A stretch of DNA of 64,000 nt. Origin: an uncultured Chloroflexota bacterium (GTDB taxonomy: Bacteria; Chloroflexota; UBA6077; CF-72). The stretch is taken from NCBI GenBank assembly GCA_964435115.1, contig CAYSYM010000012.1, positions 1,088 to 65,087 on the forward strand, given 5' to 3'. A program made the translations under genes and the position numbers. Positions 1,499 to 36,250 of the stretch are shown here, piece after piece (positions within the stretch are counted from its first letter, which is position 1; the number at the start of each line of letters is the position of its first letter). The notes under the pieces are model-generated. The model had not been told where the DNA came from. It saw only the letters and a program-made list of their open reading frames with translations, and did not search any database.

Positions 1499-2773
1499 CT
1501 AGGCGCGCACGCCGCCCATCGTGCGGTCAACGAGCGCCTCCTCGCCGAGCTGGTCCAGCTCTTCGGGCACCTCGGCGTGCAGCTCCAGCGCTCGCTGGCG
1601 GTTCGGGAAGATGCCCTCCGGCCGGGTGAGCATGAGGACGACCAGCGCCAGGCCGAAGATGCCGAACTTGTACTGGGTCAGGTCGACGGTCTGGAGGAGG
1701 TCGCTCACCAGCGGGACGTTCAAGGCGCCGGCAAGCCCGTGCAGCCAGTTCGTCGCCTCGCTGGTCAGCACGCGGTCGTAGAAGCCGAGCACGACGCCGC
1801 CGAAGATGACGCCCCAGATGTTGCCGATCCCACCGAGGATGATCATCGAGAGGACGATGATCGAGATCGAGAAGTCGAACTGGAACGGGTCGATCACCTG
1901 CAGCATGCTCGCCCAGAGTGACCCGGCGAAGCCGGAGAAGGAGGCGCCGAGCGCGAAGGCGAGCAGCTTCGTCTGCACCAGGTCGATGCCCATCGCGGCC
2001 GCGGCCAGCTCGTCCTCGCGCATCGCCATCCAGGCGCGCCCGACGCGCGAGTTGGCGAGGCGGTGGATGGCGATGACGGATACCACCCCGACGAGGAAGA
2101 TGAGGTAGTACCAGCCGGCCTGGTCGCTGTTGAACAGCTCCCTCACCTCGACCTGGCTGCCTTCGACCCACGGGACCGCCGGGCGGCCGATCGGGTTCAT
2201 CCCCTTGGAGCCCTTCGTCCACTGGTCCAGGTTCAGGAAGACGCGGGGGACGATCTCACCGAACGCCAGCGTGACGATGGCCAGGTAGTCGCCCCGCAGG
2301 CGGAGGGTTGGCGCGCCGAGGATCACACCGAAGCCGGCGGCGACGAAGAAGGAGAGAGCCATTGCGACGTAGAAGTTGGCGCTGAAGTAGGGGGCGAGCG
2401 GACTCTGGGGCGAGGTGAGGAAGGCGGCCGTGTAGCCGCCGATGGCGAAGAACGCAGCGTACCCGAGGTCGAGCAGCCCGGCGAACCCGACGACGATGTT
2501 GAGGCCGAGGGCGAGCAGTGTGAAGATGAGGATGGTTGGGAAGGCGCCCATCTTGCGCCAGCCGAGGCTGGCATCGAAGAAGGGGTAGAGCGCGAGGAAG
2601 ATGATGAACGTGACGAGGAAGGCGTTTCGGAGCACCGTGCCCGGGTCGCCGCCGTTGCGGCCCAGCACGCGGGCGAGGGCTCGCCCGCGCCCGGAGAGCC
2701 CGGCGCCAGTCGGCCCGGCGGCCTGCTGGGAGGGACGCACGGTCTGGCTGGTCATGGCATCCCAGGCGCTCAC
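1499..2773 (-). CDS. livM: branched-chain amino acid ABC transporter permease (LivM-like)
   Basis: 424-aa polytopic hydrophobic ORF with an N-terminal extension typical of LivM. Adjacent to livG and livH, 4-nt overlap with livH. Confidence 0.85.
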   Translation of the reverse strand: MSAWDAMTSQTVRPSQQAAGPTGAGLSGRGRALARVLGRNGGDPGTVLRNAFLVTFIIFLALYPFFDASLGWRKMGAFPTILIFTLLALGLNIVVGFAGLLDLGYAAFFAIGGYTAAFLTSPQSPLAPYFSANFYVAMALSFFVAAGFGVILGAPTLRLRGDYLAIVTLAFGEIVPRVFLNLDQWTKGSKGMNPIGRPAVPWVEGSQVEVRELFNSDQAGWYYLIFLVGVVSVIAIHRLANSRVGRAWMAMREDELAAAAMGIDLVQTKLLAFALGASFSGFAGSLWASMLQVIDPFQFDFSISIIVLSMIILGGIGNIWGVIFGGVVLGFYDRVLTSEATNWLHGLAGALNVPLVSDLLQTVDLTQYKFGIFGLALVVLMLTRPEGIFPNRQRALELHAEVPEELDQLGEEALVDRTMGGVRA

Positions 2774-3726
2774 GCCCGCTGGGTCGTCTCTTCGCCCAGC
2801 AGACCGGTGGGCTTGAAGATCAGAATCAGGACGAGGAGCCCGAACACGACCGCCTGGGTCCAGCGCGGGTCCCAGATCCGATCAGAGATCGCGGCGATGA
2901 TACCGATGACCATCCCGCCGAGGAACGCGCCCTGGATGTTGCCAATGCCGCCCATGACGGCGGCGGTGAACGCGTAGAGGCCGTTGCGGAAGCCCTGGAA
3001 GAACCAGGCCGAGTTGTTGTACAGGCCGTAGATCGTGCCCGCCGCGCCGGCCAGCGCCCCGCCCAGCAGGAAGGTCAGGGCGATGGTCAGGTTGATGTCG
3101 ATGCCCATCATCGCCGCGGCGTCACGATCCTGGGCGGTCGCGCGCATCGCCTTCCCGAGCCGGGTGCGCTGCACGAACAGGTGGAGCGCGACCATGAGTG
3201 GGATCGAGATCGCGATGGCGAGCAGGTCCTTGAGCGTGAACAGCACTTGCGTGCGGATGCCGAAGACGTCGTTGAAGATGTCCACGCGCGGCACGAGGTC
3301 CGGGAAGTTGACCTGGGACGCGCCCTTCCAGAGCAGCCCCACGTTGACCAGGATGAACGAGACGCCGATGGCGGAGATGAGCGGCGCCAGGCGGGGCGCG
3401 TTCCTCAACCGGCGGTAGGCGAGCCGCTCGATGCTCACGTTGAGGAACGCCGCGACGACCATGGCCACGAGGATCGCCCCGGCGAGCAAGACGGCGATCG
3501 TGGGCGGCGGCAGGAGGTAGGCCTGCCGCTCCCCGAGCAGCCCCGGGACCCAGGTGACGAGTGTCAGGGCGACCATCGTCCCGATCATGAAGACGTCGCC
3601 GTGGGCGAAGTTGATGAGCTCGATGATCCCGTACACCAGTGTGTAGCCGAGCGCGACCAGCGAGATGATGGCGCCGTTGGCGATGCCGATCAGCAGCACC
3701 TGCAGGACTTCGTCGTACCACTGCAT
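2770..3726 (-). CDS. livH: branched-chain amino acid ABC transporter permease (LivH-like)
   Basis: 318-aa hydrophobic ORF of the LivH/BPD permease type. First permease after the binding-protein gene. Confidence 0.9.
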   Translation of the reverse strand: MQWYDEVLQVLLIGIANGAIISLVALGYTLVYGIIELINFAHGDVFMIGTMVALTLVTWVPGLLGERQAYLLPPPTIAVLLAGAILVAMVVAAFLNVSIERLAYRRLRNAPRLAPLISAIGVSFILVNVGLLWKGASQVNFPDLVPRVDIFNDVFGIRTQVLFTLKDLLAIAISIPLMVALHLFVQRTRLGKAMRATAQDRDAAAMMGIDINLTIALTFLLGGALAGAAGTIYGLYNNSAWFFQGFRNGLYAFTAAVMGGIGNIQGAFLGGMVIGIIAAISDRIWDPRWTQAVVFGLLVLILIFKPTGLLGEETTQRA

Positions 3727-3873
3727 GCTATGTCGCGCGTGACCCCCAGCGAGGACGGCTAAAGCGCTTCGCGCTTGCTCTGAGAGCGGTGGTCGAGCAG
3801 GCGCTGCCCGAGCCCCCCAAGATTGCGGGAATGATGGCGTGCAGGCCTCACGCCCGCAAGTTTCCCGCCACGT

Positions 3874-3948
3874 CCCGAATCCGTGAGTCCGAGATCAGAT
3901 CCGTCACCCAGCGGGTGAAGCTTTCAATCGAGAATCCACGGATTGGGG
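3874..3948. repeat. 75-bp palindromic repeat element, copy 1 of 3, between livK and livH
   Basis: cccgaatccgtgagtccgagatcagatccgtcacccagcgggtgaagctttcaatcgagaatccacggattgggg. The terminal 12-bp arms are inverted repeats (one mismatch) and there is an inner TCACCC-AGC-GGGTGA hairpin. Near-identical copies occur at 5823-5899 and 34114-34189. Confidence 0.75.
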
Positions 3949-4024
3949 CACGTGCGAGGAGCTGGCCGCCTCCGTGACTGGCCAGCTCCTCCACTCCGTG
4001 CGGTCCGGGTTCCCGCCGCGCCGA

Positions 4025-5398
4025 CTACCTGGGCGCCTCGATCGTGACGGCGTTCTCGTCGTCGAACTTGCCGCCCTTCACCTGGCGGCCACTCATCGCC
4101 GTGAGCGTGGTGTCGCCGCTGGCCTGGAAGCTCCACCTGCCCAGGGCACCGTCGAACTCCCGGGTGGCGAAGACGGCGTCCCTGATCTTGGCGCGGTCCT
4201 TCACGCCGGCGCGCTGGATGCCATCCAGTGCGACCTTGGCGGCCTCGTAGCCATAGGCGGCGTACGCCTCCGGCTCGGACTTGAACTGGTCCTTGTACCG
4301 CGCGTACCAGTCTGCCCCCTTGCCGGTGAGCTTCTTCGGGGGCACGCCGCCGAAGGTGATGTACGCGCCCTCGGCCGCCTGGCCGGCGGCTTCGATGAAG
4401 GCCTGCTCGTAGATCCCATCGGGGCCCATCAGGCGGACGCTGTCGCCCAGCGTCGCCCGCAGGTCCTGCCAGAGCTTGCCGGCGTTGTTCTGGGTGATAC
4501 CGCCGTAGAACACGACGTCGGCGCCGCTGGCGCGCACCTTCTGGGCGAGCGCCCGGTAGTCGCTGGCCTTGGAGTCGATGCCCTCAGGGCCGCCCACGAC
4601 CTGCAGGCCAATCCTGTCCGCGGCCAGCTTGTACATGACCGCCAGCCCGCGACCGTACAGCTCGGTGTCGTCCAGCACGTACGCCTTGGTGGCGCCGAGG
4701 TTCTTGGACCACTGCGCCGCCGCCGCTCCCTGCAGCTCGTCCGACGGCACCACGCGGGTGTAGTTTCGCTGGCAGCCGGGGTAGTAGACGTCCGGCTCGT
4801 TTGGCTCGACCCCCTCCACCTTCTTGGTCAGGCCGGGGTAGGTGTTGGCTGGCGAGATCATCACCAGGTTGGCCTTGCAGAGGATCGGAATGGACACCTT
4901 GGCCGCGCCCGAGTTGAACGTGCCGATGTAGACCATCGCGTCCGGGTCGCCGGCCGTCATGTTGGCGTTCTCGGCCTCCTTGGCGGCGTCCCACGACCCC
5001 TTGGCGGCCGTCGCGTCGTCCATGTCTTCGTAGGTGATCGTCGCGTTGCCGATCCGGTTGTTTACCTCGCCCAGCGCCATCTTGATCGAGTTGACGATGG
5101 TGTCGGTCTGGCCCTTGCTCGAGCCGGTCCGCGGCAGACTGGACATGATCTTGATCGTGCCGGTCAGGGCGCCAGCGGCCGGGCTGGGCGAGGGCACCAC
5201 CGCGGGCTTGGCGGCCGGGCTCGGGCTCGCGACCGGGCTCGCCGCCGGGGCGGCGGTCGGCTTGGGCGCTTCGGCCGGCTTGGCCGGTGCCGTGGTGGGC
5301 GCCGGCTGCGCGGCAGGCGCGCACGCCGCGGCGAGCGCGGCCAGGGCGGCCGGCAGCACGAACAGGCGCCAGAACGTTGCTCTACGCATCATCTGCAT
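4025..5398 (-). CDS. livK: branched-chain amino acid ABC transporter substrate-binding lipoprotein (LivK/LivJ family)
   Basis: 457-aa ORF with a lipoprotein signal (LAALAAAC) and an Ala/Pro-rich linker. The periplasmic binding domain type I is recognisable (GIDSKASDYRALAQKVRASGADVVFYGG...). RBS GAGGAGG before MQMMRR. Confidence 0.9.
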   Translation of the reverse strand: MQMMRRATFWRLFVLPAALAALAAACAPAAQPAPTTAPAKPAEAPKPTAAPAASPVASPSPAAKPAVVPSPSPAAGALTGTIKIMSSLPRTGSSKGQTDTIVNSIKMALGEVNNRIGNATITYEDMDDATAAKGSWDAAKEAENANMTAGDPDAMVYIGTFNSGAAKVSIPILCKANLVMISPANTYPGLTKKVEGVEPNEPDVYYPGCQRNYTRVVPSDELQGAAAAQWSKNLGATKAYVLDDTELYGRGLAVMYKLAADRIGLQVVGGPEGIDSKASDYRALAQKVRASGADVVFYGGITQNNAGKLWQDLRATLGDSVRLMGPDGIYEQAFIEAAGQAAEGAYITFGGVPPKKLTGKGADWYARYKDQFKSEPEAYAAYGYEAAKVALDGIQRAGVKDRAKIRDAVFATREFDGALGRWSFQASGDTTLTAMSGRQVKGGKFDDENAVTIEAPR

Positions 5399-5486: not shown

Positions 5487-5822
5487 GAAAGAACGCCCTG
5501 CGGTGGGCAAGTGTTCCCCGCGGGGGGTGCCGACCCCCGCGCACCTGTCATTCAGGCGCTCGAACGTGCGGCCTGGGAGCGTTCCCCAGAGGCCGCCTAT
5601 CGCCTAGACGTTCGGCGGAGACCCCTCCTCACGCATCAACGCGGGATCGCGCGCCCCGAAGTAGCGCGCACAGAGCCACCTGCCCCTCCACGAGGCCGTC
5701 CTGTGCGTGTACGCGCTCGCCAAGGAGCGCGGACCCCAGCGCCCTAGTTACGCCGTTGTGACCCGGGCGAGCTAGCGGCACAGTACCAACGCCTCCCCCC
5801 CTTGTCAACTGCCGCCGGTGGG

Positions 5823-5899
5823 CCCGGAATCCGTGAGTCCCAGATCCGATCCTTCATCCGCTGGGTGAAGCGTTCGATCTGGAATCCACGGATTCGGGG
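5823..5899. repeat. palindromic repeat element, copy 2 of 3
   Basis: cccggaatccgtgagtcccagatccgatccttcatccgctgggtgaagcgttcgatctggaatccacggattcgggg. Same architecture as copy 1. Lies in the divergent intergenic region between the liv operon and the 6207 gene. Confidence 0.75.
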
Positions 5900-6206
5900 T
5901 GGGCGCGGAGCGCTCGGGACGCTGCCGGGGCGGGCGTCAGGTGGTGGGTGTTGGATGGCGGGCCTGCCTCCCGCTGCGCTCGCCTCTGCAATCCGCCGTC
6001 TGAAATCGGAGAGCTCCGGTGGCTGGCGGCTGGGGCGCGGAGATCGCTGGGATGGGCCCGGTGGGGGAATACGGCGCGGCGGCGTGCGTTATACGTTCTT
6101 GGAGTAGCGCATCGTCCCGCGAGCACCCCTACCTGCTGACCCCCAAGATCGGACAAGGCACAGATCCTGCCGGGCACGCTTCGCGCACGAAAGGACCGGC
6201 CCCGCA

Positions 6207-8921: not shown

Positions 8922-11900
8922 TCAGCCCGGGTGCTTCGCCTGGTGGCGCCGGCGTGCCGGCCAGGCGGCGACGGCGAGCAGGCCGAGCACCGCGGCGAGC
9001 GAGGCGAGCGTGACCCCGAGACCGACCCAGATGCTGGCCGGCTCGAAACGGAACACCACCTGGCTCGAGCCCGCCGGCACCTGCACCACCCGGAAGAGCA
9101 GGTCGCCGCGGAGCAGGGGGCGCTCCTGGCCGTCCACGTAGGCCCGCCAGCCGGGATAGAAGGTGTCGCTGAGCACCAGGAAGGCGTCCGCGGGCGTCGA
9201 CACGCGCACCGCCACCTCGCCCAAGTCGTACCGTTCCAGGTCGGCGCGTCCCCGCTCCAGCACGCCGCTGGCCGGGAGCGTGGGGGCGATGTCGGTGGCG
9301 GAAACGGCCTGGGCCAGCAGCACTGGCGGCGTGTCTCCGGCGAGGACCACCTCGCGGCGCGGGTCGAACGGCTCGCCTGCCATCACGTCGAGCGAAGTGC
9401 CGGGCGACGCGGCGAACCGGGCGCTGGGGACGAGGAAGGCCCGCGGGAAGGCGGCGGTGTTCTCGAGGATCGCCACACTCGTGTCGCGGTACACCTCGCG
9501 GTACTTGGTCTTCTGGCGGCCGAAGAGCTGGCGGGTGTTGCCGGCCGGATCGACGAGGGCGGCCCCGTAGAGGACGAACTCGCCGCGCGGCAGGAGGCTA
9601 CGTACCTCCAGGGTTGTGCTGCCCTCGCCCCGCTCGAACGGCAGCCGGGCGAACGAGAGGAGCCGCGGCTCCGGCCGGCCGTCGCGGCCGAGCTCCGCGG
9701 CCTGCCCGGCGACTTCGACGCGTTGGTGCTGCACCTTGGGCTGGACGAGCGGGTTGTCGAACGCCCACTCCATCGTGTCGCGGCCAGCCAGCAGCGGCCG
9801 CCGCTCGATCACCTCGTTCTTCGGGTCGCGGAGGATCACCTCCGCGACCGGGGTGTCCTGGGGAACCTCCACCGCGTTCACCAGCGCCGAGACGACCCGC
9901 AGCTCGGCAATCGCGAAGCCGGCCGGGACGGCGAACGTCTGGTCGCCGAGGGCGTTGCGGCCCGGCCCGCGCAGCAGTGGGTTCTGCGCGAGGTAGGTGA
10001 CGCCGCCGTAGGCAGGCAGCGGCCCGTAGCGCGCGGGCTCGACCACGTAGCGGACGTTCCACAGGTCCAGCAGGTCGTCGTCGACGGCCTGGACACGCCG
10101 CAGGTAGTCGCGGTACCAGCGCGACTCGAGCGAGGAGTAGCCGTTGGCCGCTTGCACGGCGAGCGGCGCCAGGCGGTTGGGCGCCGTCTGCTCGAGCACC
10201 GGGGAGGTGAGCACGCGCACCGGCTGGCCGCGCCGCGCGTCGTCGGCGACCAGGCGGGCGAGCGTCTGGGTGGCGGGCGAGGAGGCAGCGAGCGCGGCGA
10301 GCGTGTCACGCGGGTGGATGTTCCAGGAGAAGAGGAGCAGGTCGAGCGTGGTGGCGGCCACGAGCGCGGCCGGCCACCCGGGCCACGCGCGCGCCCGGAC
10401 CCAGGGCCCGCTGCGCCAGGCATACAGGGCCAGCCCCAGAGCCGCCAGGCCGGCGAGGGAGCCGGCGACGCGGGGGTTGGCGAGGTCAGTGGCCCACAGG
10501 AGGCCGGCGTAGACGTCGGCGGCCGTGAGCGGGTAGGAGTCACGTGGGAGGGTGAGGTACCACGCCTCGGCCAGGGCGCGCGCCGTCTCGGCCGCCCCGA
10601 GGAGCCAGGTGTGGGCGGCGGCCAGGCCGAGCGTGAGCGCCAGCGACGGGGCAAGAGCAAGCGCCAGGGGACGGAGGCGCCACGGGCGGGCGCCGACCGT
10701 GCCGGGCGCTCCGCGCGTCCTGTTCCGGGCGCTCAGCCCGGGGGCCGCATCGATACGAGCGTCTGGCAGACGGGGGCTCCCGGACTGAGCGCGCTCCTGG
10801 AGCCAGGCTAGCCCGTACGCCGCCAGCATCGCCAGGGCGAGCACGACCACCAGGGTGAAGCGGCCGGGGGCGCGCAGGCCGGAGAAGCCCGGTGCGAGCC
10901 AGAGCAGGCGGTGCAGGTTGAGCGGGCTGTACTGCCCGAGCGCCAGGAGCAGGGCCGGCAGGCCCAGCCCTACCCACAGCCACACCTCGCGGCGGCGGAC
11001 GCGCGCCACGGCCAGCCCGGCCAGCACGAGGGGGGCGAGCCCGACGTAGAGGTACGATTCCCAGTGCGTCCACAGCCCCCACTGCCGGCCAGCCTGGTCA
11101 CGGAAGATGAAGGGGAAGAGGAGCTGTAGCAGGCCGAAGGGTGTCAGGGAGTAGGCGGCCGAGTCGGCGTAGCTGAGGCCGCTGCCGCGGGGCGAGAAGC
11201 GCGCCAGCTCCGCCAGGGGCAGGAGCTGGACGGCGCCGAGGCCGACGCCAAGGATGGCCGCGGGGACGAAGACGACCAGCACCGCCCGGAGCCGCCCGTT
11301 CCAGCCGCCCGCGCCAGCCACTATGGGCCCAACCAGCCACCGGCCGAGGCCGTAGGCGGAAATGGTGAGCAGGTCGATCGCCAGGATCTGCGTGTGCAGC
11401 CCGAGGCTGGCCAGGCCGACGGCGAGGGCCATCAGCGACGCCCACTGCAGGCGCCGGCGGCCGGCCGAACGGAGGCCGTGCTCCGCCAGCGCCAGGGCGA
11501 GCGGGAGCCAGGCGGCCGTGCGCACGACGTTCTCGTGCTGGATCTGCGCCTGCAGGAAGCTCCCCAGCGTGAAGGTGACCCCGGCGAGCGCCGACGCGGT
11601 GCGCGGGAGGCGCCAGGCGCGGGCGAGCGCGTAGGTACCGACCGCGGCGACGAAGAGGTGCAGCAGCCGCAAGGCGACGAGCGCGCGGTCGGGTGGCAGG
11701 GTGAGGAGCGCTAGCAGGACGGGCGGGTAGGCCAGGCCAATCTCGCCGTCGGCGAAGATGGGGTAGCCGCCGAAGAGCGTTGGCGCCCAGAGCGGCAGCC
11801 GGCCGGCCTGGAGCTGGCTGGCGGCCCAGGCCATCAGCGGGTAGTAGAAGACGCCCGTGTCGCGCTCGTAGGCGACCACACCGGCCAGCAGGCTATCGCC

Positions 11901-33470: not shown

Positions 33471-33707
33471 ATGCCCACGGTCCTGAGGGTGCGCGGCTAT
33501 CGCCTCGGCTTCTTCTCGAATGAAGGAACGGAGCCGCCGCACGTCCACGTGCACCGGGCTGAGTATGAGGCCAAGTACTGGCTCTCGCCCGTGGAGCTGG
33601 CCCGGAACCGCGGCTTCAGCGGTCCGGAGCTGACGGAGATCGCCGCGATTGTCCAGGAGCATCGCGCTACACTCCTGGGCGCCTGGCATGACTACTTCGA
33701 CGCCTAG
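33471..33707 (+). CDS. DUF4160 protein
   Basis: 78 aa. GYRLGFFSNEGTEPPHVHVHRAEYEAKYWL is typical of DUF4160. Confidence 0.7.
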   Translation: MPTVLRVRGYRLGFFSNEGTEPPHVHVHRAEYEAKYWLSPVELARNRGFSGPELTEIAAIVQEHRATLLGAWHDYFDA

Positions 33708-33951
33708 ACGCGCCCGGGTACCCGCCTTCGATCCGCGGGCCGTGCAGGTGTGGTGCGACCCGGACCGGCTACACGTGCTGCTGGCGGACGGGCGGGAGAT
33801 CGCCGTGCCGCTGGCGTGGTTCCCCCGACTGGCCGAGGCGCGGCCAGACCAGCGGGCCCGGTGGGAGCCGCTCGGCGGCGGCCACGGCATGCATTGGGAA
33901 GAACTGGACGAGGACATCTCCGTCGAGGGGCTGCTGGGCCTGCCCGACTGA
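33688..33951 (+). CDS. DUF2442 protein
   Basis: Overlaps DUF4160 by 20 nt. VQVWCDPDRLHVLLADGREIAVPLAWFPRL...WEPLGGGHGMHWEELDEDISVEGLL is typical of DUF2442, the usual neighbour of DUF4160. Confidence 0.6.
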   Translation: MTTSTPRRARVPAFDPRAVQVWCDPDRLHVLLADGREIAVPLAWFPRLAEARPDQRARWEPLGGGHGMHWEELDEDISVEGLLGLPD

Positions 33952-34113
33952 GCGCCGGCCACCATCGGAGGGCCGGCGCCTCGCTCCGTCTGCACGCAGC
34001 GTGCGACGAAAGCGAGGGAAGCGACGAAAGGCCGCTGCGTCAGTCCCGGCGTCTCAGCTGCGCGCGCCGGCGCAGGGATGCCGGCGGCAGCCGGCGCGTC
34101 CACTCGAGGCCCT

Positions 34114-34189
34114 CCCGAATCCGTGGGCGCGAGTTCGATTCGTTCACCCAGAAGGTGACACTTTCAATCTGGAATCCACGGATTGGGGG
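34114..34189. repeat. palindromic repeat element, copy 3 of 3 (inside the tRNA-Leu islet)
   Basis: cccgaatccgtgggcgcgagttcgattcgttcacccagaaggtgacactttcaatctggaatccacggattggggg. Same terminal arms and inner core as copies 1 and 2. Confidence 0.75.
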
Positions 34190-34258
34190 CCCTACTGCGC
34201 TGTTGACGTGGTGGGCGCGGCCGGTGTTCACTCGCCCGTGCCGAGTTGGGGGTTCCAC

Positions 34259-34858
34259 ATGGCAACTGAGAGCATCGCGATCCGCCACACCGACCCGAGC
34301 CAGGAGATGGAGGCCCTGCAACGGGTGGCTGGCGACGTGGCGAAGATTCTCACCGCCGGTGAGGAGATTCTGTACGTCGCGCTTCAGAACCGGTCCAGCC
34401 TGTCCATGAAGAAGGACAGCGTCGTAGCCACGTCCAACCGCGTGATCCTCTACCGCCCGGGCATCCTCGGGCGTGTCAACTTCGAAGACTTCCCCTGGCA
34501 GGACGTGGCCAACGCCAAGATCAACCAGGGCTTCCTGGCCACGGACTTCACGGTGGAGACGACAGACGGCCGCAAGGCCCAGCTCGGCGGGCTCGACAAG
34601 GAGCAGGCGAAGCGGCTGTACGGCATCTGCCAGCAGCTTGAGCAGGAGTGGCGCGAGAAGCGGCGCGTCCGCCAGATGGAGGAAGATCGCGCCAAGGCCG
34701 GCGGCGTGTTCGTGACCGGCCCGGCGCCGGCGGCGGCTGCCGCCCCGGCGGAAGACCCCGTGGAGAAGTTGGCCAAGGCCAAGAAGATGCTGGACGCCGG
34801 GCTCATCTCCGAAGCCGAGTACGAAACCCTGAAGGCCAAGGTGCTGTCGAGCATGTAG
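34259..34858 (+). CDS. bacterial PH-domain (bPH_2/YokE-like) protein with C-terminal SHOCT domain
   Basis: EILYVALQNRSS...SNRVILYRPGILGRVNFEDFPWQDVANAKINQGFLATDFTVETTDG is the PH fold. The C-terminal KLAKAKKMLDAGLISEAEYETLKAKVL is SHOCT. Confidence 0.65.
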   Translation: MATESIAIRHTDPSQEMEALQRVAGDVAKILTAGEEILYVALQNRSSLSMKKDSVVATSNRVILYRPGILGRVNFEDFPWQDVANAKINQGFLATDFTVETTDGRKAQLGGLDKEQAKRLYGICQQLEQEWREKRRVRQMEEDRAKAGGVFVTGPAPAAAAAPAEDPVEKLAKAKKMLDAGLISEAEYETLKAKVLSSM

Positions 34859-34961
34859 ATCGCCGGCATCCGCCGGCTCGCACGCATGGCAGAGGCCCCG
34901 GACCATTCCGGGGCCTCATCGTGTCTCATGGACGCTGCCGGCGGCGCCGGCGTGCATGGTG

Positions 34962-35513
34962 CTACTCCGCCGGCGCGTCGGCCGCGTCCACGCCCAACCG
35001 CTTGGCGATGGCCTCCACGCGCTCCACCAGCGCCTGGCGCGGGCTCTCCTCCACCCGGAGCGGCCCACCATTCGCGCCGGTCACTTCGCGCTTCTCCGTC
35101 CACTCGCCTAGCTCCTGCGCCACCTGCTTCTCCAGCGCGCGCATCTCCGCCAGCAGCCCGGTGTCGATGCTGAACTCCACCTCGACCACCGCGCCGCGGC
35201 GGCGCTCAGAGCGCACCAGGAGGCCCGTAGACCAGCCCGGCTCCTCGGCGTAGCGTCGGTCGGCCGCGCGGGCGTCAATGACCGCCTGGAGCCGCCTGTG
35301 GCGCTCCACGTAGCCATCCACGCGGTTCTGCTTGGCCGCGATGCCGGCGCGCAGCAGCTTGGCCTGCATCTCGTGGCGGATGGTGTCCACGCGCTCCCGG
35401 AACGCCGCGTCCACCTTCCAGCGGGCCAGGGTGGACGGGGAGACCCCCACCTTCTCCGCGATGCGGACGTCGGGGACGGCATCCTCGGCCACGAGCTGCG
35501 CGGCGAGCGCCAT
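34962..35513 (-). CDS. phage-type HTH protein (terminase-small-subunit-like)
   Basis: N-terminal HTH (VRIAEKVGVSPSTLARWK), Arg/Glu-rich helical remainder. Genomic context: adjacent to an integrase remnant and an att site. Confidence 0.45.
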   Translation of the reverse strand: MALAAQLVAEDAVPDVRIAEKVGVSPSTLARWKVDAAFRERVDTIRHEMQAKLLRAGIAAKQNRVDGYVERHRRLQAVIDARAADRRYAEEPGWSTGLLVRSERRRGAVVEVEFSIDTGLLAEMRALEKQVAQELGEWTEKREVTGANGGPLRVEESPRQALVERVEAIAKRLGVDAADAPAE

Positions 35514-35532
35514 CCGGCCGGCCGTGGTGGGT

Positions 35533-36111
35533 GCCGCCGCGTTGCGGTGGGAGGACGTGGACGTGGTGCGCCGCGTCCTGCACGTGCGGCACACCCTCAC
35601 GCGGGTGCCAAAGAGCCAGGGCTCCTTCGCCTTCACCCCGCCGAAGACGATGAGTAGCCGGCGGGTCGTGCCACTGAACGACGACGCCGTGGCTGCCCTG
35701 CGCGCCCAGCGGATCGCCGCGCAGGAGGCACGGCTGTTTGCCGGGTCGAAGTGGGAAGACCACGGCCTCGTCTTCCCCAACCGCGTGGGGAAGCCACTCC
35801 GCGAGGACCACGTGCTGGCAGCCTTTCACCAGGTCTGCCACGCGGCCGGGGTGCCGCGGAAGCGCCTGCACGACTGGCGGCACTTCGCCGCGTCGGTCGC
35901 CTTCGCCAACGGCGCCGAGCTGCGGGACGTGCAAGACCTCCTGGGCCACAGCCGCATTGACATGACCAGCGCCATCTACACGGCGTCCGCACTCCACCGC
36001 ACGCGCGACGTGGTGACTCGGCTCGGGAGCGTCTTCGACGACGCGCCGGAGTCCCCGGACGCAGCCGCCGGGGCCGCGTTGGTCCCAGCGTTGGTCCCAA
36101 CGGCCGTCTGA
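35533..36111 (+). pseudogene. tyrosine recombinase/integrase, C-terminal catalytic domain only (N-terminal SAM-like domain missing)
   Basis: LRWEDVD...HTLTRV...RLHDWRHFAASVAFANGAELRDVQDLLGHSRIDMTSAIYT carries the R...HxxR...Y catalytic motifs. No core-binding domain. The ORF upstream of residue ~68 is unrelated sequence overlapping the opposite-strand gene. About 50 bp from the tRNA-Leu 3' end. Confidence 0.65.
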
Positions 36112-36120
36112 GGCATGGAA

Positions 36121-36152
36121 AAGGGCCTCTCCTGAACTTGGGAGAGGCCCTT
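36121..36152 (-). terminator. rho-independent terminator of tRNA-Leu
   Basis: AAGGGCCUCUCC-(8 nt)-GGAGAGGCCCUU 12-bp stem, followed on the minus strand by UUUUCC. Confidence 0.55.
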
Positions 36153-36163
36153 ACGCTGCCAAG

Positions 36164-36250
36164 TGGTGCCGAAGCGGGGACTCGAACCCCGACGGGAGTA
36201 CTCCCACTACGCCCTGAACGTAGCGCGTCTGCCAATTCCGCCACTTCGGC
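36164..36250 (-). tRNA. tRNA-Leu (anticodon CAG)
   Basis: Manual fold gives acceptor GCCGAAG/CUUCGGC, 3-bp D-stem with an 11-nt loop, anticodon stem CUACG/CGUAG with loop UUCAGGG, long variable arm GGGAG-UA-CUCCC, T-arm CGGGG-UUCGAGU-CCCCG, discriminator A and encoded CCA. Confidence 0.9.

Follow-up and report, generated by a model that had tools for sequence, protein, structure and literature searches.

A 74–76-bp palindromic repeat family of uncultured Chloroflexota that is very probably a non-autonomous DNA transposon, with one copy inside a liv operon

In an uncultured Chloroflexota genome, the spacer that separates the binding-protein gene from the first permease gene in a liv-type ABC-transporter operon holds a palindromic repeat of about 75 bp, and two further copies lie within the same 64-kb stretch of DNA (64,000 nucleotides; hereafter the window). 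The first-pass annotation of the window likened the repeat to the REP/BIME elements of enterobacteria and proposed that it stabilises upstream mRNA, so that binding protein and permease are expressed differentially. Does the repeat serve the operon, or did it arrive there as mobile DNA? Comparison of its sequence across copies and sites indicates that the repeats are very probably copies of a 74–76-bp non-autonomous DNA transposon (MITE), which consists mostly of two terminal inverted repeats of ~36 bp. This reading is built on the inverted repeats, target-site duplications, dispersal to unrelated sites, absence from orthologous sites and lack of coding capacity.

Copy 1 occupies positions 3874–3948 on the plus strand (75 bp; nhmmer 69.7 bits, E 2.7e-20), in the spacer between the binding-protein gene and livH. 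Copy 2, at 5823–5898 (plus strand, 76 bp), has the most perfect palindrome and precedes the start codon of the binding-protein gene by ~420 bp. Copy 3, at 34114–34188 (plus strand, 75 bp), has a DUF2442 gene (33634–33948, plus strand) on one side and a bPH/SHOCT gene (34259–34858, plus strand) on the other. These positions agree with those first annotated to within ±1 nt, and pairwise identity among the copies is 75–84%. A repeat search returned 3874–3948, 5824–5898 and 34114–34188 as the largest direct-repeat family of the window, with 80–83% identity to copy 1. The 13-mer GAATCCACGGATT has three exact occurrences in the window and five at two or fewer mismatches, against 0.36 expected from shuffles. 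The common plus orientation of the copies, also recorded at first pass, is borne out by nhmmer scores of 64–70 bits on the plus strand versus 36–41 bits on the minus strand. Orientation is unlinked to gene strand, copies 1 and 2 being antisense and copy 3 sense. The three sites differ in kind: one is intercistronic, one is upstream of the binding-protein gene and one is in a tRNA-linked island, and copies 2 and 3 are not intercistronic.

The region around copy 3, 33634–36250, looks like an integrated island beside a tRNA-Leu(CAG) gene (36164–36250, minus strand). In addition to the DUF2442 and bPH/SHOCT genes, it holds a truncated tyrosine recombinase gene (35332–36111; Phage_integrase positions 41–169 of 172) and a gene for a weakly matching HTH protein (34962–35780, minus strand).

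The element is 74–76 bp long and has left and right arms of ~36 bp, mutually inverted and separated by a spacer of 3–4 nt. In copy 1, the left terminal inverted repeat spans 3874–3909 on the plus strand (CCCGAATCCGTGAGTCCGAGATCAGATCCGTCACCC) and the right one spans 3913–3948 on the minus strand (reverse complement CCCCAATCCGTGGATTCTCGATTGAAAGCTTCACCC). The arm tip, 5′-CCC[G/T]AATCCGTG[G], and the inner end, TTCACCC, are both near-invariant on either arm. Across 17 of 17 copies, the outermost 12–13 nt are invariant at both ends except at positions 3–4; each copy has CCC or CCT at its start and GGG or AGG at its end. Differences specific to the left or right arm occur in mid-arm and are inherited throughout the family. 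The inner hairpin TCACCC-NNN-GGGTGA is present as first described. The same holds for the terminal arms, CCCGAATCCGTG and CACGGATT[G/C]GGG, but the 'conserved mismatch' reported between them is limited to the subfamily of this genome; in soil relatives the terminal arms pair perfectly (CCCTAATCC and GGATTAGGG). Judged by this layout, the element is a MITE cut down almost to its two predicted transposase-binding ends.

The similar peptides that all copies yield in spurious open reading frames (RIRESEIRS...NPRIG) were reproduced, and the element is non-coding, as had been concluded. Frames on the plus strand are inconsistently open or closed across the copies, and translated copies match other copies only. 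The element is thus without coding capacity and falls under the size of ~500 bp that applies to MITEs.

Directly outside each copy in the window stand 5-bp direct repeats, which the first-pass annotation overlooked. Copy 1 is flanked by CACGT (3869–3873 and 3949–3953), copy 2 by GTGGG (5818–5822 and 5899–5903) and copy 3 by GCCCT (34109–34113 and 34189–34193). Duplications were counted in 17 aligned copies with 8 nt of flank per side: three from the window, 13 from metagenomes and one from a metagenome-assembled genome (MAG). An exact 5-bp duplication in register was found in 11 of the 17, including all three window copies. The duplication at locus L014 is exact if its right end has a fourth G, as the window copies do (a 1-nt boundary ambiguity), and that at L017 matches at 4/5 positions. 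No recognisable duplication was present in four of the 17 copies, namely L001, L007, L046 and L008 (the last matching at 2/5 positions in register, or at 4/5 when shifted by 1 nt). When the upstream flank of one copy was paired with the downstream flank of another, a 5/5 match occurred in 0 of 272 pairings, and shifted windows gave at most 3/5. Duplicated pentamers at loci outside the window include TAGTC, TGGAG, TTCTC, TGCCC, GCTCT, GCGGT, AGTAC and CCCCG; no consensus unites the pentamers, which resemble the host DNA in being GC-rich. Reconstructed pre-insertion sites gave no evidence of a preference for insertion beside hairpins.

These 5-bp repeats are target-site duplications, and each copy therefore reached its site by transposition. 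It is proposed that a transposase encoded elsewhere would bind both ends of the element and insert it at a staggered target cut of 5 bp, the repair of which would leave the direct repeats seen at each copy; we infer mobilisation in trans and DDE-type chemistry. Such transposition of a non-autonomous element, with a staggered cut of 5 bp in the target, is mechanistically ordinary, and the finding is an ordinary one for mobile DNA. As part of this reading, the three window copies are in all likelihood three independent insertions into non-coding DNA. They diverge from each other by 16–25%, yet all three keep perfect duplications, which suggests that the divergence mostly predates insertion and reflects several source lineages, not decay in place. 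The possibility that copies 1 and 2 are the ends of a composite transposon around the binding-protein gene was also considered and rejected, since each is flanked by a separate duplication and in relatives the gene is in place without the repeats.

The first-pass annotation described a new, non-coding, dispersed family of nested palindromes, and members lie outside the window too, on 13 distinct contigs from metagenomes and on one from a MAG. A scan of species representatives with an exact pattern (one genome per species, in a collection that does not contain the source genome) yielded one true relative, L001 (JACQVT010000473.1), whose 2.9-kb contig belongs to a groundwater MAG with the label Planctomycetota. 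This copy is the closest to the window subfamily, at 86% identity to copy 1. Its label could reflect either spread across phyla or a mis-binned Chloroflexota contig. A pattern scan of metagenomes returned 20 contigs, with clear members in 12 distinct ones (from 13 loci, since L012 and L015 are identical in sequence). All 12 have a TTCACCC...GGGTGAA core like that of the window copies. A translated-peptide search with a 48-aa concatenation matched four proteins and added L046 as the 13th metagenome member.

The metagenome members come mostly from soil and rhizosphere contigs with 56–71% G+C, and single samples hold several different insertion sites. In all-against-all BLAST of DNA and flanking open reading frames, the flanks proved mutually unrelated. 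A conserved neighbouring gene was considered as an explanation and dropped, since matches between flanks and between flanking frames ran only through the element; no locus has a conserved gene next to its copy. The gene adjoining one soil copy has homologues labelled Chloroflexota. Contig L021, a 1.8-kb soil contig, holds two copies within 0.9 kb, a full one at 5–78 and one at 885–946 whose left end lacks its outermost 12 nt. On L023, a 308-codon open frame with high GC3 (2–928) ends at a TAA within the MITE tip (CCCTAA), and the insertion may here provide a truncated gene with its stop codon.

The position of copy 1 in the operon was annotated correctly, and Pfam matches place the genes on the minus strand: a Peripla_BP_6 periplasmic binding-protein gene (4025–5398), a first, LivH-like BPD_transp_2 permease gene (2770–3726), a second BPD_transp_2 permease gene (1499–2773) and an ABC ATPase gene (684–1493). 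Copy 1 is therefore antisense to transcription of the operon. By its LivH homologues, the host of the window belongs to Chloroflexota. Orthologous liv operons were taken from MAGs whose LivH is 88–90% identical, the closest retrievable relatives, and gene order in them is the same. The spacer between the binding-protein gene and livH is 298 bp in the window versus 169–200 bp in the orthologous operons, in which HMMs of the element and of its single ends found no trace of it. None was found either in other Chloroflexota loci, in a total of ~210 kb that includes a further 110 kb of other contigs. The coding DNA of the relatives is ~80% identical and the spacers are unalignable, so that the comparison establishes absence of the element and not a base-precise empty site. 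On the upstream side of the binding-protein gene, synteny with the relatives is lost, which leaves copy 2 without a site for comparison.

The spacer also contains a native hairpin that is not part of the MITE. It lies at 3956–3991 on the minus strand, just past the stop codon of the binding-protein gene, with a predicted folding energy of -33.5 kcal/mol (z -5.3), and copy 1 is inserted 2 nt beyond it. Both orthologous operons have a hairpin after the binding-protein gene (-44.8 and -32.8 kcal/mol), and the z-scores of all three lie between -4.7 and -5.5. The orthologous hairpins (L027, ~9850–9890; L030, ~9830–9870) conserve the shape and not the sequence, and have no U-tract. On these folding predictions, the native hairpin, rather than the MITE, is the better candidate for an intercistronic attenuator or mRNA stabiliser, and it is this conserved neighbour, not the repeat, that is probably functional. 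If any structure sets the ratio of binding protein to permease, the native hairpin would be the candidate and the MITE a later passenger. Within the MITE reading, the place of copy 1 in the operon is very likely a tolerated insertion site and does not amount to evidence of regulatory design.

The hairpin of the element itself is predicted to be stable on both strands (z -2.0 to -5.7), and the mRNA-sense strand of copy 1 folds into a long hairpin of -33.9 kcal/mol (z -2.6). Rfam 15 gave no match at the gathering threshold across the whole window, and only noise for 3840–4030 at E ≤ 10. In RNAalifold, the 20-pair consensus has a covariation term of +0.28, with a compensated change in just three of the 20 pairs. 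Interior identity is 0.56 from arm to arm within a copy, 0.67 from left arm to left arm between subfamilies and 0.51 from left to right arm across subfamilies. As there is essentially no covariation and arm similarity is no higher than that between left arms, the palindrome is explained by two ends that bind one protein together with common descent, and an RNA fold is not required. No promoter-like or terminator-like signal was found in the element, nor a U-tract.

How, then, do the alternatives fare against transposition? A REP/BIME-like element would be an extragenic palindrome that the host maintains and a RAYT (TnpA_REP) spreads, and it would stabilise the binding-protein cistron and set the binding-protein:permease ratio. 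Like the enterobacterial elements at malE-malF and hisJ-hisQ, the repeat is an intergenic imperfect palindrome with one copy between binding-protein and permease genes, and the long hairpin in the mRNA-sense strand of that copy fits such a role. REPs, however, are 20–40 nt long, carry a GTAG/CGTC tag, make no target duplication, form BIME clusters and are linked to RAYTs (PMC3733652). The present element is twice as long, at 75 bp, and has no GTAG, while CGTC occurs in copy 1 alone and is not conserved; its copies are single, unclustered and in the same orientation, with no alternating clusters. The 5-bp target-site duplications and ~36-bp terminal inverted repeats are transposon hallmarks that REPs lack, the other two window copies are not intercistronic, and the orthologous operons are without the element and have a stronger, conserved hairpin already at the spot. 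The analogy therefore fails, and the REP/BIME account is highly improbable; the regulatory role proposed for copy 1 is likewise unsupported, since orthologous operons do without it and have a hairpin of their own. The first-pass annotation had itself held that a match to the terminal repeat of a known IS, or to a MITE of a characterised transposon, would count against its proposal; the element corresponds to a MITE, although its mover is not a characterised transposon. The case is a warning against taking an intercistronic palindrome for a REP-type regulator. A structured RNA conserved across Chloroflexota, whether a cis-regulatory leader or the product of a small RNA gene, would account for the stable hairpin predicted on both strands and for conservation of the sequence in many metagenomes. 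Yet it would have no Rfam match, essentially no covariation (the arms being kept by descent and not by pairing), no constant neighbouring gene family or fixed orientation to genes and no promoter-like or terminator-like signals, and it would leave the flanking duplications unexplained. This makes an RNA of either kind extremely improbable.

Two other alternatives keep a mobile origin. In one, copy 1 began as a MITE and was then co-opted, its transcribed hairpin contributing to differential liv expression or mRNA decay. A location within the operon, at 2 nt beyond the native hairpin, together with an intact duplication and a stable fold in the mRNA sense, would suit this proposal, which is nonetheless very unlikely given that the insertion is conserved in no relative, has no U-tract or terminator-like signal and would share a niche that the native hairpin already occupies. 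In the other, the repeat is a Tn3-family-derived miniature element (TIME) moved by a Tn3-type transposase. The combination of 5-bp duplications with inverted repeats of ~36–38 bp is the classic Tn3-family pairing. Tn3-family ends, however, are conserved as 5′-GGGG...CCCC-3′ with an inner TAAG, whereas the tips here read 5′-CCC...GGG-3′ and there is no inner TAAG. A Tn3 end also scores far below the MITE tips on a matrix of IS1380-family ends, which shows the dissimilarity of the two and no more. Known TIMEs are also larger, at 200 bp or more. TIMEs resemble the element in being non-autonomous, in their documented 5–6-bp direct repeats, with 5-bp duplications among them, and in inverted repeats of similar length (about 38–40 bp) (PMC4133298). 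They differ from it in size, those described being 262 bp and longer, and in their AT-rich targets, where the element is far shorter and its targets are GC-rich (PMC4133298). A Tn3-type origin is accordingly very unlikely.

With non-autonomous transposition as the preferred reading, a source of transposase was sought. The window, ~450 kb of fetched loci, PLSDB plasmids and IMG/VR contigs yielded neither an autonomous parent nor a cognate transposase. In the window and at every locus, HMMs for the complete element and for a single end failed to detect solo ends or long elements; BLASTN against PLSDB plasmids gave noise only, two scans of viral contigs in IMG/VR gave 0 matches, and tblastn with the ISEcp1 and ISKpn23-like transposases found no match in the window or the retrieved loci.

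The tips of the element point to the IS1380 family as a lead, not a result. In the ISfinder family table, CC tips and duplications of 4–5 bp describe this family. ISEcp1 makes a duplication of 5 bp. The ends of eight IS1380-family records all start CC[C/T]. Those of ISEcp1 are CCTAGATTCTACGT and CCTAAATTCCACGT, and seven further plasmid members start CC[C/T]G, such as CCCGAATCTCTCA (Rhizobium), CCCGGATTTCTCA (ISPa33) and CCTGAATTATGCA. In the window tip, CCCGAATCCGTG, the first eight bases agree with those of the Rhizobium IS1380-family element. The element thus resembles IS1380 elements (ISEcp1, IS1247/ISKpn23, ISPa33 and IS1678) in its 5′-CC[C/T] ends and 4–5-bp duplications: its tip CCCGAATC is identical to the Rhizobium IS1380-family end and similar to those of ISPa33 (CCCGGATT) and ISEcp1 (CCTAAATTCC). 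Unlike them, it has no transposase gene, and similarity is poor past the first 8 nt. On a matrix of 16 IS1380 ends, the MITE tips rank only in the top 0.4–3% of window 12-mers, and in five sampled IS1380 members the duplication is clearly 4 bp (CTAG or CTAA), versus five GC-rich base pairs here. Descent from an IS1380-family parent may therefore be entertained tentatively, with the odds somewhat against it. The clean 5-bp duplication signature can steer the search for the transposase. A more specific proposal combines a near-minimal MITE of an undescribed, IS1380/piggyBac-related Chloroflexota transposon with a co-opted copy 1 that tunes mRNA decay or read-through beside the native hairpin; as a whole it is very improbable. 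Were it true, the complete end requirement of the transposase would be defined in 74 bp.

Among bacterial MITEs, Correia/CREE of Neisseria, RUP of Streptococcus pneumoniae and MITEAba12 of Acinetobacter are likewise short non-coding elements that have terminal inverted repeats and make target-site duplications (PMC6382973, PMC9330008). They also share with the element many intergenic copies, a long hairpin if transcribed and a transposase that acts in trans. The element differs from all three in its unrelated sequence, its smaller size (74–76 bp, almost ends only) and its uncultured Chloroflexota host. The duplicated target is TA for Correia and RUP and 9 bp long for MITEAba12 (PMC6382973, PMC9330008), whereas the duplications here are of 5 bp and have no target consensus. 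A previously undescribed MITE family is thereby gained for a poorly studied, uncultured phylum. Repeats of this kind break up metagenome assemblies and yield spurious open reading frames, and their recognition aids annotation.

Several other palindromes and repeats came up in the searches. Short palindromes at L026 980–1048, L016 1870–1940 (the same as L025 2112–2182) and L011 523–589 have an outer stem AATCCGTG[A/G]G...GAATCCACGGATT and wholly different cores. In L026 the tip reads CCTGAATCC, and TATT[A/G] may be repeated in the flanks. These palindromes may be sister MITE families or chance matches. Gemmatimonadota MAGs (L004 7592–7674, L006 199–272 and L003 3103–3164) carry another palindromic repeat, whose arms are tandem runs of GGAATCCGTG and CACGGATTCC around a GGGGATTCCC-type core; it has a 9-mer in common with the MITE arms and is otherwise unrelated. 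A Treponema MAG (L002, 5100–5500) contains a tandem array of ~21-nt, GGAATCCATGGATTATAAGTC-like units, which matched only through the search 13-mer.
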